Sequence record: NC_017487.1
Strand: one strand, 5' to 3'
Length of the DNA: 35,934 nt
Origin: a plasmid
Part shown: positions 2,133-35,934 of the stretch, piece after piece
How the letters are laid out: the number at the start of each line of letters is the position of its first letter
Position numbering within the stretch: position 1 is the first letter of the stretch
The notes under the pieces: generated by a model
Seen by the model: the letters and a program-made list of their open reading frames with translations, nothing else
Databases searched by the model: none
Told to the model about the DNA's origin: nothing
Position numbers and translations under genes: made by a program

Positions 2133-5100
2133 ATGAGTCATTCGGAACAAATGATTGAAAACCAGTTCATACAGATCTTAAGTGAGAAAGAAAATCAATG
2201 GACTTATCGTCCGGACTTGAAGTCGGAAGAAGCACTTTGGCAAAACTTTAGAGGTCATTTGAACCGAATTAATTTAGCAGTATTGGAAGAGCAACTATTA
2301 ACGGACAAAGAATTTAAGCAAGTCAAAGTCGAGTTTTCACGTTTGACCGGAACGCCTTTTTTAGCTTCTCAATGGCTTAGAGGAGAAAACGGGGTGGCTC
2401 AAGTTTTATTAGAGCGAGAAGATGGGAAAAAAGTGACTTTAGAAGCCTTTAGAAATAAGGATATCTCAGGAGGAACTTCTTCTTATGAGGTAGTTCACCA
2501 AGTGGTCCCAGATTCCTCTAGAGTAGATCGTGGAGATGTGAGCTTGCTGATTAATGGGCTCCCAATCATTCATATTGAGCTCAAAAAAGAGTCCGCTAAA
2601 GACGGTTTCATGCAAGCTTATTATCAAATTCAGCGTTATGCAGAAGATGGATTTTTTAAAGGGATTTACGCAACTACTCAAATCATGGTGATTTCAAATA
2701 AAGTCGATACCCGATACTTTGCAAGACCTAGTGAAGATACCGCTGAAGCCTATGCTCGGATGAAGAAGTTTTTATTTAATTGGCGGACTGAAGACAATCA
2801 AACGGTTTCCGATTTGTTTGATTTTACTCGTACAGTTTTGCGGATACCCGATGCCCATGAATTGATTAGCCAATATACCATTCTCGTCGATGATCAAAAA
2901 AATCAAAAATTCCTCATGGCTTTAAGACCTTACCAAATTCATGCTATTCGTAAGATTCGTCAAAAAGCGGCACAGCATGAAGGAGGATTTATTTGGCATG
3001 CGACAGGTTCAGGAAAGACCATTACCAGTTTTGTCGCAACGAAATTATTAGCACAAAATGCGATCGGTGTTGATCGTACGGTCATGGTTGTTGATAGAAC
3101 AGACTTAGATGCTCAAACGCAGGATGAGTTTACGAAGTTTGCCTCGGAATATCATACCGGACAAACGACCGGAAATTCGGTAGCCAATACTTTGATTGTT
3201 GGGATCAAAAATCAAAAACAGTTGGCTCGAAACCTCCTATCATCAAAAAATAATAATACGATTTTAGTGACCACGATTCAAAAACTCTCTGCGGCTATGC
3301 GAAGTGCCCAACAAGAGAGTGAAGAAAAAGGCTCGAATCAATTTGAGAAGCTACGGCAAGAACATCTTGTTTTTATTGTTGATGAGGCTCATCGTGCGGT
3401 TAGTGATGAGGAAATGAAGCGAATTAAGAAAATATTACCCAATTCAACCTGGTTTGGATTAACGGGGACGCCTATTTTTGAAGAAAATAAAAAGCAAGAA
3501 AATGGAACCTTTGCCAGAACGACGAGCCAGCAATACGGGCCACTCCTTCACTCCTATACAACCAAAAATGCCATGGATGATGGGGCTGTGTTAGGCTTTC
3601 AAGTCGAGTATCATTCACTGATTTCAGAAGAGGATCAAGAGGTGATTGTCACCCAACTCAATAAAGGAAAGTTGCCAGACGATGCCCTCCAACAAGAAAA
3701 ATTATTGCCTACGGAACTGTATGAAGCAGATGAACATATTCGTACCATGTTACAAAAAATCTTTAATCGGAGAAGTGTGGTCAAAAAGTTCAAGGTAAAG
3801 AATGGTTTTCCTACGATGTCAGCCATTCTTACCACTCACTCGATTGCCCAAGCCAAACATATTTACCGGATTTTAAAGGAAATGAAAGATAATGGGACAC
3901 TCTTGAATGGGCGACAATTTGATGAACGTCATCAACTGATTGATAAAGATTTCCCAAGAGTAGCTATTACCTTCTCAACCAATCCGGATCAATTAGAAAA
4001 AAATGAACAAGACGATGAATTAGTAGAGATCATGAAAGAGTATGCGAAACAGTTTGATGCCTCTCCTTATCAAGATGAGAAACTCTACAATCAAAATATT
4101 AATAAACGGTTGGCCCGTAAGGAAAAGCAATATCAATCGGAGGGTCAGTGGCTAGATTTTGTTATTGTTGTCGATCGTTTATTGACAGGCTTTGATTCTC
4201 CAACGATTCAAACCTTATATATTGATCGAGAAATGAACTATCAAAAGCTCCTTCAAGCGTTCTCAAGAACGAATCGTATTTATACGGGCAAAGATTCTGG
4301 TTTGATTGTCTCTTTTAGAAAGCCCTTCACCATGAAAGAAAATGTGAAAAACACGTTTCGTCTATTCTCAAATGAAAAGCAAAACTTTGATCAACTGATT
4401 CCAAAAGAATATGAAGAAGTCAAAAAAGAATTTATCGAATGTTCAACACTTTATAAACAAAGCGAAGCCGACCTATCGGATAATCCCAATGATCTTAAAA
4501 CGATGATTGCGCAAGTGAGTGCTTATCAAAAGCTAGAAAAGAGTTATAAAGCGCTCCGAAGCTATGATCAATACGAAGAGGACTTTGAAGCATTTTCAGA
4601 AGTAGTGGAGCAGTTGCCACAATATCAAGGAAAAACAGAAAATATTAAAACAAAGATTAAAGAAATGATCGAGGATGAGGAGCATCCTGAGGAGGACTTC
4701 GAGAAGCTTTTACAAGAGATTGCTTTTTCTTCGCAGCTCAATGCGACACATAAAGACGTCGTGGATAGTTTTTATATTAATCAACTTTTGAAAGCGATCC
4801 AATTAAACGAAGCAGGGGCCGTTGAAAAATTTGAAAAAGAAATCCAACAAAAGGATCCTCAAATCCAAAAGATGTATCACACCTTGAAAGATCAACTCGT
4901 CAATACTACTGAAGAGATCGATGTGGCTCAATTAAAAGAGACTTCGATTCAAAATGAAATTCAAAGACAACTTCAAAAAGAAGCTGAAGAATTTGGATTA
5001 TCCTTCGACTTTTTACAGTCTGCAATGAATGAATATCAAGGCGATAAGAAAACGATCCCTTATTTAACCCATTTACTGGATTCGATGACTCTTAGTAAAG

Positions 5101-31256: not shown

Positions 31257-32000
31257 TTAAATGGAGTGATAAGTTCTGCGATTAATTTCTCGTTGTTTAA
31301 GATACTTGAAAAAGACCTCAGTGACGGCATTATCATAAGGATATCCAGGCTTGGAGTAAGAAGCAAGCAATTGATGCTCATCTAATAACTTTCTAAAGGA
31401 AGCTGATTTAAATTGGCTTCCTTGGTCCGAATGAAAGATAATTGGTTCCTTAGGCTTCCTCTTATTTATAGCTATCTCTAAGGTGTCACAGGCGAGTTTA
31501 GCATCAATTCGATCACTTACTTTCCACGCAATACATTTCCTTGAGTAGAGGTCAAGAATAGCACAGAGATAAACGTGACGCTTAGGACCAATGGAAATAT
31601 AAGTAAAAACAGTTGTCCACACTTGATTGGGAGACTTGGGATTAAATTCCTCTTTAAGTAGATTATCAGAAGAAAATACAGGAGATGTGTTTGATTTAAA
31701 GCGAGGTTTGATGGTTGATATTTTAGGAAGTGTCATTGACTTGAGGAGTCGTAAGATATGCCCTTCAGAGACATTGATGCCATAGTCACGCAGGAGAATA
31801 ATTTTAAAAGCTCTTGTTCCAATTCTTTTCTTAGCTTTCATATAAATCTCAAGGAGTAATTTTCTCAAGCATTGATTTTCTACTTCACGCTTCGAAGGCC
31901 TCTTGTTTATGAAGTTATAGTAGGTGGAACGATTGACATGTAAAACACGACAGAGCATAACTGTCGTGTGTTCAAATCGGAGTCTGTAGATGGCTTTCAA
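31257..32000 (-). CDS. IS3-family transposase OrfB (DDE integrase core)
   Basis: ...WTTVFTYI...LCAILDLYSRK...HSDQGSQFKS...PYDNAVTE... DDE motifs. Confidence 0.8.
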   Translation of the reverse strand: MKAIYRLRFEHTTVMLCRVLHVNRSTYYNFINKRPSKREVENQCLRKLLLEIYMKAKKRIGTRAFKIILLRDYGINVSEGHILRLLKSMTLPKISTIKPRFKSNTSPVFSSDNLLKEEFNPKSPNQVWTTVFTYISIGPKRHVYLCAILDLYSRKCIAWKVSDRIDAKLACDTLEIAINKRKPKEPIIFHSDQGSQFKSASFRKLLDEHQLLASYSKPGYPYDNAVTEVFFKYLKQREINRRTYHSI

Positions 32001-32061
32001 TCTTACTTGGAGTTTTGCATGAATATGGCACTCGCTTTTTTTAAGATCAGATTTTCTTCCT

Positions 32062-32277
32062 CTAGTTGGGCATTCCTTTTTTGTAATTCTTGAATCTGTT
32101 TAGCAGCAACACCGTATTATCTTCAAGACGCACTTGAGAGTACTGCTTAATCCATTTTGCAAGTGCAGAAGAAGATACCCCATAATCTTTACAGAGTTCA
32201 GTTTGTGTTTTACCAGTTTGATAGAGATTAACGAGCGATTGTTTGAAATCCTCGTCGTAACGTTTAAAAACTGACAT
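32062..32277 (-). CDS. IS3-family OrfA (HTH), with apparent frame anomaly at its 3' end
   Basis: MSVFKRYDEDFKQSLVNLYQTGKTQTELCKDYGVSSSALAKWIKQY.... The expected leucine-zipper tail AAKQIQELQKRNAQLEEENLILKKASAIF lies in a different frame. Confidence 0.6.
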   Translation of the reverse strand: MSVFKRYDEDFKQSLVNLYQTGKTQTELCKDYGVSSSALAKWIKQYSQVRLEDNTVLLLNRFKNYKKGMPN

Positions 32278-32355
32278 AAAAGTCCTTTCATTTTTGTGTC
32301 TTAATAGACAGATTATAACACACAATTTTCTGTCCACTTTTATAGTATAGCTCCA

Positions 32356-32567
32356 TGGCACGTGTTGGTGATCTTTTAGGAATCAACTATCTAGGGACGC
32401 ATACCATGCGTAAAACAGGCGCTTATCGTGTTTATACGCAGTCGAATTATAATATTGGTTTAGTCATGCATTTATTAAACCATTCAAGCGAAGCCATGAC
32501 TTTAACATATCTTGGATTAGATCAAGCTAGTCGAGAAACGATGTTAGACCAAATTGATTTTGGGTAA
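32356..32567 (+). pseudogene. 3' fragment of a tyrosine recombinase/integrase gene truncated by the IS3-family insertion
   Basis: ...LGTHTMRKTGAYRVYTQ...LLNHSSEAMTLTYLGL. The His/Tyr box II region of tyrosine recombinases, without an N-terminus. Confidence 0.6.
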
Positions 32568-32613: not shown

Positions 32614-32933
32614 GTTGAATCGTCCAAGGACGATTCAATGCTTTTGACTTGTAAGAACAGGATTGAATGAAGCCATACTGTTCGCATATTTTTAGTGGAT
32701 GAACAAACAAAATACGAGAGATTTTTTGTTCGTTCATCCATGGTTTTAGGAAAAAGAGGGACGATTTCGGAAGAAGAAAATCGTCTCTTTTTTTCTTCTT
32801 TTTGTATGACAAAAAGAAAGATCTTTTGCCCATTTTATTTTTATAAAATGGGTAGGTGGCGTTTGCGTAAAGCAAATCGACACACTCCAAAGGGGATAAA
32901 AGGGGAAAGTGAAACTTCCCCCTTTTCAAGCCA

Positions 32934-33100
32934 CATTGTAATACAAGAACGAAGTGATTTGTATTACAATGTGATAGCTTGCAGTATTTATGGTTTTATA
33001 TGGTCTATTTTGTTATAATGATTGTAACCGAATAAGGCGCAATGCTTATTACAAAATCAATGACAAAGGGCGATTGAGGAATGAGCGCTGGGGCATTTTA
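32934..33100 (+). promoter_or_regulatory. candidate oriT: 12-bp perfect inverted repeat (32934-32971) plus a nic-like ATAAGGCGC at 33032-33040, upstream of mobC
   Basis: cattgtaataca...tgtattacaatg. ataaggcgcaatgc resembles MOBQ-type nic regions (ATAAGTGCGCCCTT). Confidence 0.4.
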
Positions 33101-33118
33101 TCTTTGAGGAGGCTATTT

Positions 33119-33484
33119 ATGGATCAGAAAAATGTATCACAAAATCAAACAAAGTACATTCAATTTAGATTATCTGAAGAACAATACAATAAGCTGAAAA
33201 TTTCAGGAGAAACATATGGACTCTCTCCGAATCTTTATGCGAAAAAATTAGCACAAAAATCTCATTTAAAAAAACCTTATCTCGAACATGACCAAGCGAA
33301 ATCTTTATTATTAGAACTCTCAAAACAAGGAACCAATTTAAATCAAATCGCCAAGAAACTCAATCAATTCGATCGGATGGACAACCAAGATAAAGAACTG
33401 ATCGAGGCTTTACGCTATACATACGGAGTACTCGCTCAAGCTCAAAAGGGATATCAAGAGTTATGGCAACAATTGCAAAAATAA
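33119..33484 (+). CDS. mobC: mobilisation accessory protein MobC-like
   Basis: 121 aa, RBS gaggagg before the ATG at 33119. Immediately precedes and overlaps the relaxase gene. Confidence 0.7.
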   Translation: MDQKNVSQNQTKYIQFRLSEEQYNKLKISGETYGLSPNLYAKKLAQKSHLKKPYLEHDQAKSLLLELSKQGTNLNQIAKKLNQFDRMDNQDKELIEALRYTYGVLAQAQKGYQELWQQLQK

Positions 33485-34695
33485 GCAATGGCGCAAGTGC
33501 AGCGAGCGCCCTTAATTATGCTTTAGGTCAAGACAGACCCATGCATGAAAAAACTGAGCAGTGGCTACAAGATCATCAATTGGAACGTCCTGTGGAGCTG
33601 ACAAATTGTCGGGCAGTTGCCGTGGGTGGAACCAACGGGATTGATCCCTTTATTGCCAAAGAACAATTCGATGTCGTTCGACAACTTCATAACCAAACCA
33701 AAGAATCCAATCAAGTCTTGCGTATTACCCAATCTTTCGCCTTAGATGAACTGAATCCGAAAGTTCAAAAAGACTGGCAAAAAGCCAATGATTTAGGCGT
33801 TGAATTAGCAGAAAACCTTTATCCTAACCATCAAAGCGCTGTTTATACGCATTTAGACGGAAAAAATCACGTCTTACACAACCACATCATTGTCAATAAG
33901 GTCAATTTAGAGACAGGAAAGAAATTAAGAGAACAAAAAGGAGAAAGCGTTCAACGAGCACGAGAAATGAATGATCGACTCGCTTCTCGAGAAAACTGGC
34001 ACATTTTAGAGCCACCAAAAGAGCGTCAAACAGAGACAGAAAAAGAACTAATCGCCAAAAATGAGTATTCTTACATGGATGATTTGAGAGAAAGAATCAA
34101 TAAATCGCTTCAAGATGTCTCTGTGAGCTCATATGAGACGTTTAAAGAGCGTTTATCCGATAATGGTGTAATTCTATCAGAAAGAGGCCAAACGTTCTCA
34201 TACGCCTTTTTAGACGCCAATAATAAGCAAAGACGAGCACGAGAGACCCGGTTGGGTTCTGATTTTGGAAAGGAGACCATTTTACATGAGTTGGAAAACC
34301 GAGCAAGACAAAACGAATTTAGCGCTGTTGAACAACGAGAACCAGCGATTACTCCGCTTGAGCGAGACACTCAACAAAGAGAATCAGAAATTGTTAGCCT
34401 TGAACAAGCAATTGAACCAAGAAAATCAGAAGCTCGCAAGCGAGAATCAAAAATTAATCGATTTATTGACACAATCAAACAGTTTGCAGGACGAGTACCA
34501 GAACTTACTCAACGCGTTACAAGAAAATTAAAGCAAACAAAAGAGAAAATCCTCGATGATTTTGAACGTCGCTTTTCAAAGGACATGAAAAATTACGAGC
34601 AAGAACAACAGAAAAGCCTAGAAAAACAAGCGAATAGAGACGTACAGTCCGAAAAGAAACCAACAAAAGATCATGATCGGGGGATGAGTCTATGA
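33463..34695 (+). CDS. mobA: relaxase MobA (HUH nickase with 3-His motif HLDGKNHVLHNHIIVN)
   Basis: 410 aa. N-terminal relaxase domain with a candidate catalytic Tyr in SALNYALG, and an H.D...H.H.H motif. Confidence 0.85.
   Translation: MATIAKISNGASAASALNYALGQDRPMHEKTEQWLQDHQLERPVELTNCRAVAVGGTNGIDPFIAKEQFDVVRQLHNQTKESNQVLRITQSFALDELNPKVQKDWQKANDLGVELAENLYPNHQSAVYTHLDGKNHVLHNHIIVNKVNLETGKKLREQKGESVQRAREMNDRLASRENWHILEPPKERQTETEKELIAKNEYSYMDDLRERINKSLQDVSVSSYETFKERLSDNGVILSERGQTFSYAFLDANNKQRRARETRLGSDFGKETILHELENRARQNEFSAVEQREPAITPLERDTQQRESEIVSLEQAIEPRKSEARKRESKINRFIDTIKQFAGRVPELTQRVTRKLKQTKEKILDDFERRFSKDMKNYEQEQQKSLEKQANRDVQSEKKPTKDHDRGMSL
34286..34531 (+). CDS. candidate overlapping gene inside mobA (alternative frame), 81-88-aa coiled-coil protein with ENQKL heptad repeats
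   Basis: 267-nt window open in two frames. aaggag at 34269-34274, ATG at 34286 (TTG at 34265). ...NKENQKLLALNKQLNQENQKLASENQKLIDLL... Confidence 0.3.
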   Translation: MSWKTEQDKTNLALLNNENQRLLRLSETLNKENQKLLALNKQLNQENQKLASENQKLIDLLTQSNSLQDEYQNLLNALQEN

Positions 34696-35315
34696 ATAAA
34701 GATGAACAACTCGTTGTTCAAGTATTAAATGCTTATAAAAATGGAAAAATTGATTTCAGTCACGTTCCAGAACTAGAAACCTTAGTCCGTCAAGAGGTTA
34801 ATAAAGAGTTTCGGGACTACCAAGAAAAAATAGAAGCTGTTGCGAGTCAAAAAATGGAATCTGCCATTCAAGAACAACTCCATCGTTTAGAGGCAGAAAA
34901 CTTAAAAGCGGATATACTGAAAGAAATTCAAGATGAAAAACAAGAATTAATCACTTTGAAAAAAGAACTAAATGAACATCAAGAGCAGATAAAGGTAGAT
35001 CGAAAACATGCGATTGTCGAACATTACAGTATTTTGATTGTGAATATTATCTGCCTGTTCTGTTTCTTAGTTGTCGGTATTCTCATCGGACGATGGATTT
35101 ATAAAGGTATCTGGGACGGTTGGGGCTTACATATTTTGTATGACACAGTGATGGAAATACAGCCTAAACATCCTTATGGGGCAGTCGTTCTTGGATTAGG
35201 TGGTTTTGGTTTAATCGGTGCTGGAATTTATGGCAGTTTTCGATTAATGTATACCGCTTCAACATGGTTTGATCAACGTCCAAAAATTTTCAAAAGAATC
35301 TTTCCAAAAAAATAG
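34692..35315 (+). CDS. MobB-like mobilisation protein (coiled coil plus two C-terminal TM helices)
   Basis: 207 aa. Start overlaps the mobA stop (ATGA). Membrane anchor ILIVNIICLFCFLVVGILIG. Confidence 0.55.
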   Translation: MNKDEQLVVQVLNAYKNGKIDFSHVPELETLVRQEVNKEFRDYQEKIEAVASQKMESAIQEQLHRLEAENLKADILKEIQDEKQELITLKKELNEHQEQIKVDRKHAIVEHYSILIVNIICLFCFLVVGILIGRWIYKGIWDGWGLHILYDTVMEIQPKHPYGAVVLGLGGFGLIGAGIYGSFRLMYTASTWFDQRPKIFKRIFPKK

Positions 35316-35331
35316 AGAGTGAGGGGATATT

Positions 35332-35934
35332 TTGGTTTTAGACAATAAATTAGGTTTAACAAATTCAGCAGAATTAGCTAAACAAGAAGAAATCTTAACG
35401 AAAAAAAGAGCCAAAGAATTGTTTGAGTCTGGCAAAATAGAGGATCTGGAAATTGGGACGTTTCAAGGCTTATCTGATATTCATCAGTTTTTATTCCAAG
35501 ATATTTACGACTTTGCAGGAAAAATTCGAGAAGTGAATATTGCGAAAGGAAACTTTCAATTTGCGCCACGTATTTTTTTAGTGCAAACACTTGAATATAT
35601 TGATAAATTACCTCAAGAAACATTTGATGAAATTATTGATAAGTACTCGGATATGAATGTAGCCCATCCGTTTAGAGAAGGCAATGGACGAGCCACTCGT
35701 ATCTGGTTGGATTTAATTCTTAAAAATAAACTACACAAAATCGTCGATTGGAATCAAATTGATAAGGATGAATATTTAAATGCCATGATCCGTAGTACAG
35801 TCAGCACCAATGAATTAAAATATTTGATTCAAAAGGCTTTAACCGATGATTTAGGAAAAGAACAATTCTTTAAAGGAATTGATGCGAGTTATTATTACGA
35901 GGGATATTATGAAATAAAAACAGAAGATTTATAA
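35332..35934 (+). CDS. Fic/Doc-family protein (putative AMPylase) with HPFREGNGRATR motif
   Basis: 200 aa. Canonical Fic motif HxFx(D/E)GNGRxxR. TTG start with RBS gagggg. Stop TAA at the window end. Confidence 0.8.
   Translation: MVLDNKLGLTNSAELAKQEEILTKKRAKELFESGKIEDLEIGTFQGLSDIHQFLFQDIYDFAGKIREVNIAKGNFQFAPRIFLVQTLEYIDKLPQETFDEIIDKYSDMNVAHPFREGNGRATRIWLDLILKNKLHKIVDWNQIDKDEYLNAMIRSTVSTNELKYLIQKALTDDLGKEQFFKGIDASYYYEGYYEIKTEDL

Follow-up and report, generated by a model that had tools for sequence, protein, structure and literature searches.

A probable leucine-zipper gene nested in the relaxase gene mobA of a lactococcal plasmid, at the position of the overlapped 5' part of mobB

The mobilisation genes mobA, mobB and mobC of staphylococcal plasmids partly overlap (PMC6157413), and in RSF1010 a small accessory mobilisation gene, mobB, lies inside mobA/repB in a different frame (PMC2200642). 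The published lactococcal mobilisation operon comprises four genes, of which the Fic-type one is named mobD; its mobB starts on the mobA stop codon and no open reading frame (ORF) is listed inside mobA (PMC6098607). We report here on a stretch of 35,934 nucleotides (NC_017487.1; hereafter the window), a segment of a Lactococcus theta-type plasmid whose 3' end is formed by a mobilisation operon (mobC, mobA, mobB and a Fic gene), the same operon as the mobC-mobA-mobB-mobD of pNZ4000 and the pLd plasmids. An ORF nested in the +1 frame of mobA (34286-34531) is, judging from its conservation, very likely a genuine and selected protein-coding gene, and its translated product would most likely serve mobilisation as an accessory protein that descends from the N-terminal module of MobB. 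The ORF does not stand alone: pC221-type and many other Firmicute plasmids have, at the equivalent position, the 5' part of mobB that overlaps mobA.

The mobB gene (DUF334) of pC221/pC223/pSK639-type plasmids has in common with the window the relaxase family, the +1 frame and an internal ATG with a Shine-Dalgarno sequence at the homologous mobA codon. Staphylococcal MobB and the nested protein both begin with M-S-[WLM]-K-D/E, followed by a polar region and a coiled coil, but the former is a single protein of 223-231 aa that extends past the mobA stop into a DUF334 transmembrane (TM) domain, whereas the latter has 81 aa and no TM segment. In pC221 (locus L088), the +1 ORF runs from an ATG at 4308 across the origin and encodes 223 aa. 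In S. aureus NZ_CP034010.1 (L006), it spans 2198-2890 from an ATG at 2198 and encodes 230 aa, of which RefSeq annotates the last 151 aa (start 2435). The annotated start of staphylococcal mobB probably lies too far downstream in hundreds of records. The Pfam DUF334 model covers only residues 110-228 of staphylococcal MobB. As separate observations, both MobB forms are found in databases (WP_231638431.1 being the 230-aa form) and the synonymous sites of staphylococcal mobA are suppressed from the internal ATG onward.

A first-pass annotation of the window had likened the locus to RSF1010, a comparison that is fair for the architecture and does not extend to homology. The mobB of RSF1010/R1162 is nested like the window ORF and represents an analogue, for which no sequence similarity is expected; that system has another relaxase subfamily, another position within the gene and no leucine-zipper repeat, and the window harbors a second, separate mobB. 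The work of Meyer and colleagues on R1162 is reported to show that MobB stabilises the relaxosome and promotes transfer.

The same annotation had described an ORF at 34265-34531 inside mobA in an alternative frame, as the sequence and the ORF reading bear out. The frame ends with a TAA at 34529-34531, counts 88 codons from a TTG at 34265 or 81 from an ATG at 34286, and lies wholly within mobA, ending 164 nt before the mobA stop and 161 nt before mobB. Both start codons that had been put forward are present, but the TTG is situated 5' of the Shine-Dalgarno sequence and was rejected as an unlikely start; in the homologous locus L003, a TGA stop stands immediately 5' of the conserved ATG. The proposed ribosome-binding site AAGGAG exists, at 34270-34275 instead of 34269-34274, and the repeat given as four ENQKL units is made of three ENQKL and one ENQRL. 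The separate mobB-like gene expected after mobA is also there. From 34214 on, 105 codons of the mobA +1 frame are free of stops, 24 of them preceding the ATG, and the 297 codons upstream contain 17 stops in this frame. When synonymous codons were drawn anew according to the usage of the gene, with the MobA protein held fixed, 0.14% of trials left the +1 frame of the window open over at least 81 codons; the probabilities in six lineages were 0.0014 (window), 0.042, 0.0018, 0.055, 0.006 and 0.0002. Probabilities of zero obtained for one-piece ORFs were disregarded, because such ORFs extend beyond mobA and the resampling is invalid for them. The open +1 frame exceeds chance.

Homologues were collected by tblastn and a pattern scan with one genome per species, giving about 90 loci with a MobA identity of 29-100%. 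The window MobA residue His275 (H of ILHELE) was projected on each homologue, which resulted in 38 unique contexts, the MobA identity among these 38 distinct homologues being 29-54%. A +1-frame start codon (ATG, except for one GTG and one TTG) is present at the exact His275-equivalent codon in 34 of the 38 contexts, and an ATG is found a few codons off in L061 and L068, where the alignment slipped, so that about 36/38 contexts have a start. The MobA residue at this site is variable (N/H/D/Y/I/R) and its codon is always NAT (AAT 15, CAT 11, GAT 3, TAT 3), never NAC, as predicted by selection on the overlapping ATG. A G-rich Shine-Dalgarno core (AAGGAG, AAGGGGG or AGGGAG) occurs at the same distance from the start in 36/38 contexts, where it is coded by the [KR][EG] of the MobA motif D[YF][EDG][KR][EG] (e.g., EKE, DKG, ERE). 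The nested start falls on the [HNDY]-E/G-[LF] codons of the MobA motif, as for pC221-type MobB. The RNA around the nested start showed no significant fold (z = +0.84).

Of 126 close-clade plasmid records, 124 have the nested ORF intact over 80% or more of its length. It is also open, with the same ATG and Shine-Dalgarno sequence, in all intact homologues examined, down to 30% MobA identity, and homologous nested ORFs are found in five deep clades. The only broken case, L004, is a decayed mobilisation module with a truncated mobC, a frameshifted mobA and stops in the nested frame. Such an intact frame in homologues, together with synonymous constraint, supports the unannotated overlapping gene that had been suspected. 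Variable sites were counted by mobA codon position among 18 distinct close-clade mobA sequences and amounted, for positions 1/2/3, to 15/3/56 in the relaxase domain, 17/6/33 in the middle of mobA, 14/8/7 in the overlap and 11/6/19 in the tail. MobA third positions are variable at 7/82 sites within the overlap vs. 108/329 outside (Fisher p = 3.7e-6), a roughly 4-fold lower variability, and the distribution among codon positions differs between the overlap and the rest of the gene (chi-square p = 1e-4). A MobA third position is a second position when read in the nested frame. Within the overlap, mobA position 1 varies most, and it is the nested-frame wobble position; the nested ORF is under purifying selection phased with its own frame. 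Per site, the overlap is the least variable part of mobA (0.118), yet it is there that MobA is least conserved between clades. The third-position deficit was replicated between L029 and L030, which belong to an independent clade (difference rate of 0.11 in the overlap vs. 0.36, p = 1.4e-6) and between the window and L019 (p = 2e-5). The mobA/mobB overlaps of one-piece plasmids, used as positive controls, behaved similarly, with third-position rates decreasing from 0.63 to 0.21 in Carnobacteriaceae (p = 3e-15), while position 1 increased from 0.28 to 0.41, and from 0.34 to 0.13 in a staphylococcal pair (p = 3e-4).

Between deep clades, identity reaches 28-40% in the nested frame, 16-30% in the MobA frame and 17-34% in the third frame. 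When the window was compared to L003 by BLASTP, significant matches were obtained both for the nested frame (E = 1e-5) and for the MobA-frame segment (E = 3e-6), indicating that the region is dual-coding and did not simply switch frame. The MobA segment had been regarded as a poorly conserved linker, which its low identity between clades justifies, yet the latter match indicates that it is constrained. The ENQKL units are written with varied synonymous codons (GAG/GAA, CAG/CAA, AAA/AAG, TTG/CTC/TTA), pointing to selection on the second frame, and the MobA frame reads RESEI, RKSEA and RESKI at these units. Similarly, in the block LNNENxxLNQENQxL, leucine is kept across clades via TTG/CTG/CTC/TTA/CTT, the MobA residue there being L/I/F/A/T. 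The comparison of L005 with L034/L037 was uninformative, the 3' half of the nested ORF being a mosaic replacement.

Some rearranged copies deserve mention on their own. In L. lactis A12 pA12-3 (L093, NZ_LT599052.1, 478-1710), an unannotated mobA carries two in-frame stops and the nested ORF is intact, a single case that may be due to chance at 95% identity. The metagenome variants P0004 and P0005 present a 105-nt in-frame deletion between ENQ repeat units, 1-nt indels fuse the MobA and nested frames in P0002, P0003 and P0005, and L001 (1549-1881) is a truncated mobA remnant beside a RepB gene. The ENQ repeats seem prone to slippage or recombination.

The coiled-coil peptide announced by the first-pass annotation is supported by heptad analysis and by structure prediction. 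Leucine occupies seven consecutive d positions (L15, L22, L29, L36, L43, L50 and L57) of a predicted continuous helix, more than the four heptads with hydrophobic a and d residues taken as the minimum for a zipper; the a positions (N19, S26, N33, N40, N47 and N54) are mostly Asn and not hydrophobic. AlphaFold2 modeled one uninterrupted helix over residues 3-80 with a mean pLDDT (predicted local distance difference test) of 96.1, from a shallow alignment of eight family members. The pattern resembles that of parallel basic leucine zipper (bZIP)-like zippers such as GCN4, in which successive heptads have Leu at d and an a position holds Asn; the likeness is one of pattern only, since the nested protein has no basic DNA-binding region and five a-position Asn vs. 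one in GCN4. In GCN4, the a-position Asn favours in-register parallel dimers. The family alignment shows a conserved N-terminal MSWxxE, a central zipper block and a C-terminal LQTxYxxLQxxYxxL, with a variable mosaic insert between the two latter. Tryptic peptides of the nested protein would include TNLALLNNENQR, LLALNK, QLNQENQK and LIDLLTQSNSLQDEYQNLLNALQEN.

Scans of the nested peptide against Pfam and NCBIfam returned only sub-threshold coiled-coil noise; the ORF has no Pfam match and no hydrophobic segment, and thus lacks the TM domain of DUF334 proteins. A database search with the single peptide retrieved five proteins, all close variants or frame-fused artefacts, and profile searches with the nested family retrieved 13 clusters and 18 representatives (of 1.84 billion), which were nested ORFs or marginal, unrelated coiled coils. 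As the matches were all nested ORFs or unrelated coiled coils, they gave no functional lead. The ORF is unannotated in the RefSeq records examined, and a few GenBank records label its product "hypothetical protein" (NRO31906.1, GAA5500159.1). Another "hypothetical protein", H76, was considered as a nested ORF and rejected, being a fragment of the mobA frame. An identical nested peptide is encoded by NC_002137.1, a 42,810-bp Lactococcus cremoris plasmid that we take to be pNZ4000.

Across the relaxase family, the +1 ORF presents two arrangements. In most of the family, MobA measures 300-430 aa and the +1 ORF encodes a protein of 148-271 aa, extends 100-520 nt beyond the mobA stop and ends with C-terminal TM segments, i.e., it is mobB. 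Such a one-piece arrangement is found in staphylococcal pC221-type plasmids and in plasmids of E. faecium, Carnobacteriaceae, Bacillaceae, Macrococcus and Nosocomiicoccus. A Lactobacillales subclade, to which the window belongs, has a long MobA (410-480 aa), and there the +1 ORF encodes a coiled coil only (81-118 aa) and ends 128-218 nt before the mobA stop. Its length is 81 aa in the window clade and 82 aa in L. brevis pLB925A03 and relatives (MobA about 51-53% identical); the Ligilactobacillus ORFs measure 95 aa, those of the L005/L034/L037 group 110-117 aa and that of Carnobacterium L036 118 aa. At most of the long-MobA loci, a separate frame +2 gene with a TM hairpin starts on the mobA stop codon (ATGA), as does the window mobB, the ATG of which overlaps the mobA TGA. 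Residues 45-184 of the window MobB align to residues 45-189 of the one-piece MobB of L086 (BLASTP E = 2e-7), and its TM region was matched to the one-piece MobB profile by hhalign with a probability of 85%. This alignment suggests that the downstream gene is the body of one-piece MobB and that the nested ORF takes the place of the overlapped N-terminal module. We therefore infer that mobB of the long-MobA subclade is in effect a split gene, whose N-terminal coiled-coil module was left nested. To the eye alone, the nested ORF and the N-terminal region of MobB seem to have an Lxx[QE]Nxx[LI] heptad motif in common. A fusion of the nested ORF with the downstream mobB by frameshifting was considered and rejected, given that the ORF ends before mobB and that the frame of mobB is full of stops upstream. 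A third arrangement may exist in Oceanobacillus sp. CF4.6 (L056), whose mobA ORF of 479 codons fully encloses a +1 ORF of 181 aa with a TM segment at its C-terminus and is followed by an unrelated gene; the relaxase gene would here contain an entire MobB.

The most likely course of events would be the following. Ribosomes may start independently on the mRNA of the mobilisation operon at the internal Shine-Dalgarno sequence and ATG, signals that are written into the MobA motif D-F-G-K-E-T-I-L-H-E-L-E. The product would be a leucine zipper of 81 residues, helical throughout, in which d positions are Leu and a positions mostly Asn. Across the relaxase family, mobB would make use of this internal start as well, the one-piece ORF running past the mobA stop in most plasmids; in the long-MobA subclade, the N-terminal module would have stayed nested, the membrane-anchored body becoming a separate downstream gene with its own start. 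Translation by internal initiation and descent from the 5' module of mobB are probable. The zipper would form pairs, either between its own copies or with MobA or the coiled coil of the membrane-bound MobB, and this pairing could help to link the relaxosome to the transfer apparatus of a helper plasmid. Such a role as coiled-coil accessory is suggested by the analogy with RSF1010/R1162 and pC221 MobB and by the split-gene geometry, and we propose the binding partner and the function in transfer with less confidence than the coding gene itself. More tentatively still, and with somewhat less than even chances, the nested product could be an independent fifth mobilisation protein of the lactococcal-type operon, which would pair specifically with the coiled coil of MobB, reconstitute the split MobB and be needed for efficient transfer.

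Several points weigh against a coding gene derived from mobB. When nested proteins were aligned to the N-termini of one-piece MobB by hhalign, only residues 1-11 were aligned, with a probability of 22%, and the MobA motif in part dictates these first 11 residues; we consequently claim no homology between the zipper itself and one-piece MobB. No one-piece MobB was found by the profile search of the 1.84 billion representatives. The lineages of the resampling test are not fully independent. Among the 29 close-clade substitutions, 20 are non-synonymous in the nested frame, so the constraint on the peptide is moderate. The MobA frame being also significantly conserved, part of the similarity in the nested frame is a shared signal. 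Finally, the case is built on sequence comparison and predicted structure.

Other explanations of the open and constrained frame must be weighed against the nested coding gene, and what chiefly speaks against them is that the constraint is phased, that heptad residues are conserved and that L003 has a stop directly before the ATG. The frame may be an evolutionary relic, the untranslated leftover of the 5' end of an ancestral one-piece mobB that remains open since the sequence and composition of MobA here disfavour +1 stops. The start site in common with one-piece mobB makes such a relic historically plausible, the hydrophilic MobA segment lowers the frequency of +1 stops (the resampling probability is just 0.04-0.06 for L003, L005 and L034), and the preponderance of peptide-altering changes in the close clade would suit an untranslated frame. 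We nevertheless consider a relic quite unlikely, as the frame is open in at least five clades with MobA 36-54% identical, mobA synonymous sites are still being suppressed in two independent recent clades (p ~ 1e-6 each), variation concentrates at the nested-frame wobble position, the heptad Leu and an LNxEN motif are kept through synonymous codons, and the nested ORF decays where the mobilisation module decays (L004). Alternatively, the act of translation could matter and not the peptide, by tuning ribosome traffic, mRNA stability or the expression of the MobA C-terminus or of mobB. The start codon and the Shine-Dalgarno sequence are indeed the most strictly conserved features, and the length of the ORF (81-118 aa) and its middle part vary between clades, with mosaic inserts. 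However, a regulatory translation requires neither conserved heptad Leu, a-position Asn or C-terminal LQTxYxxLQxxYxxL, nor a suppression of nested-frame second positions along the entire ORF, and the distance of 161 nt from the end of the ORF to mobB, whose frame is closed upstream, renders direct coupling to mobB unlikely; we thus judge this explanation very unlikely.

The constraint may also be imposed by a nucleic-acid element: a structured RNA, a promoter within the gene, or a site acting at the DNA level, for instance a secondary origin of transfer (oriT) or protein-binding repeats. Imperfect direct repeats with AGAATCAGAAATTG-like units are present and repeat-mediated deletions do occur (P0004, P0005), but the variation has a 3-nt periodicity phased with the +1 frame, the open frame and start signals are conserved while the nucleotides diverge beyond blastn detection, the repeats differ at nested-frame wobble positions, and the start showed no significant RNA fold, which leaves this explanation highly improbable. 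Hardly any credit can be given to a ribosomal frameshift from mobA that would yield a MobA isoform with a zipper tail and no separate protein. It is true that the +1 frame of the window is open 24 codons upstream of the ATG and that rare database proteins fuse both frames (P0002, P0005). Nonetheless, the sources of these fused proteins are truncated remnants or isolated, short contigs from metagenomes, L003 has its TGA directly before the ATG, the conserved Shine-Dalgarno sequence and ATG argue for initiation, and no slippery motif was noted.

Table 1. Position of the nested ORF and of the surrounding mobilisation genes in the window.
Feature	Position	Strand	Description
mobC	33119-33484	+	First gene of the operon, relaxosome accessory; Pfam NikA-like and MobC matches; annotated in homologous plasmids
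mobA (host gene)	33463-34695	+	410-aa relaxase; PF03432 at residues 47-179; annotated as relaxase in homologous plasmids
Shine-Dalgarno sequence of nested ORF	34268-34275	+	GAAAGGAG, 10 nt before the ATG; MobA codons G-K-E
Nested ORF (probable gene)	34286-34531	+	81 codons and TAA in the +1 frame of mobA: MSWKTEQDKTNLALLNNENQRLLRLSETLNKENQKLLALNKQLNQENQKLASENQKLIDLLTQSNSLQDEYQNLLNALQEN
Leucine-zipper core of nested protein	34328-34456	+	Residues 15-57; heptad analysis
Downstream mobB	34692-35315	+	207 aa: N-terminal domain, coiled coil and TM hairpin; frame +2 relative to mobA
Fic-domain gene ("mobD" of lactococcal plasmids)	35332-35934	+	Last gene of the operon, up to the end of the window; Pfam Fic match

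Besides the mobilisation operon (Table 1), the window encodes RepB, a type I restriction-modification system, CorA, a D-lactate dehydrogenase and a Tn3-family transposase. An IS3-family element lies at 31257-32361 (-), with overlapping ORFs of 99 aa and 247 aa in the usual orfA/orfB frameshift layout, and a short integrase-like fragment (32355-32567, +) is found just upstream of the oriT region. Perfect 15-nt inverted repeats are present at 32932-32946/32959-32973, together with a 13-nt pair at 32898-32926. About 200 further plasmids, most of them from Lactococcus, match the query solely over a segment of about 155 bp located upstream of and into mobC (33000-33154), with 85-93% identity; these segments resemble orphan copies of oriT. 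The start of mobC is ambiguous: some RefSeq records annotate a 164-aa form from an ATG at 32990 (e.g., L089, L094), and in others a form of 121 aa begins at 33119. MobA ends with conserved residues, R-G-M-S-L in the window (34680-34695) and G-x-S-R/L in distant homologues. In the window, this C-terminal motif coincides with the GGGGGATGAG Shine-Dalgarno region and the ATGA overlap of the downstream mobB, and it is kept in one-piece plasmids too, though no start follows there.

The mobilisation module is 96-99.5% identical in more than 120 plasmids, mostly of Lactococcus, with Enterococcus, Streptococcus, Listeria, Vagococcus and Lactobacillus among the hosts. The lactococcal module was also encountered with 92-99% identity on short contigs of many actinomycete "NPDC" assemblies from one sequencing project, labelled Streptomyces, Microbispora, Amycolatopsis, Dactylosporangium and Lentzea (L010-L014, L020, L022, L024, L025, L031), as well as in assemblies labelled Saccharibacteria, Methanobrevibacter and Proteus (L018, L019, L023). 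These occurrences almost certainly reflect contamination or mis-binning and not host range.

A fully nested zipper gene without TM segment appears to be previously undescribed in a lactococcal-type operon. Mobilisation modules of this type are carried by well over a hundred dairy Lactococcus plasmids; relatives occur in Enterococcus, Staphylococcus, Listeria and Streptococcus, mobilising technological traits as well as resistance genes. Given the hidden gene, the four-gene parts list (mobC, mobA, mobB, mobD) would be incomplete, and mutations or deletions in the 3' third of mobA would also affect a second protein. If the account of a fifth mobilisation protein is true, the MobA "linker" and the nested protein would be dual-coded and co-evolving, and wherever this relaxase family occurs on Firmicute plasmids, resistance plasmids of staphylococci and enterococci among them, the internal start in mobA would be the true start of mobB. 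Annotation pipelines would then usually truncate or miss mobB in these plasmids; a family-wide internal start means that the routine annotation of mobB falls short, with 151 aa in staphylococci vs. 223-231 aa. Mutations that are silent in one of the two frames make the locus directly testable. More generally, it would represent a clean bacterial case both of dual coding maintained over long times and of a gene that was split, with one half left nested.

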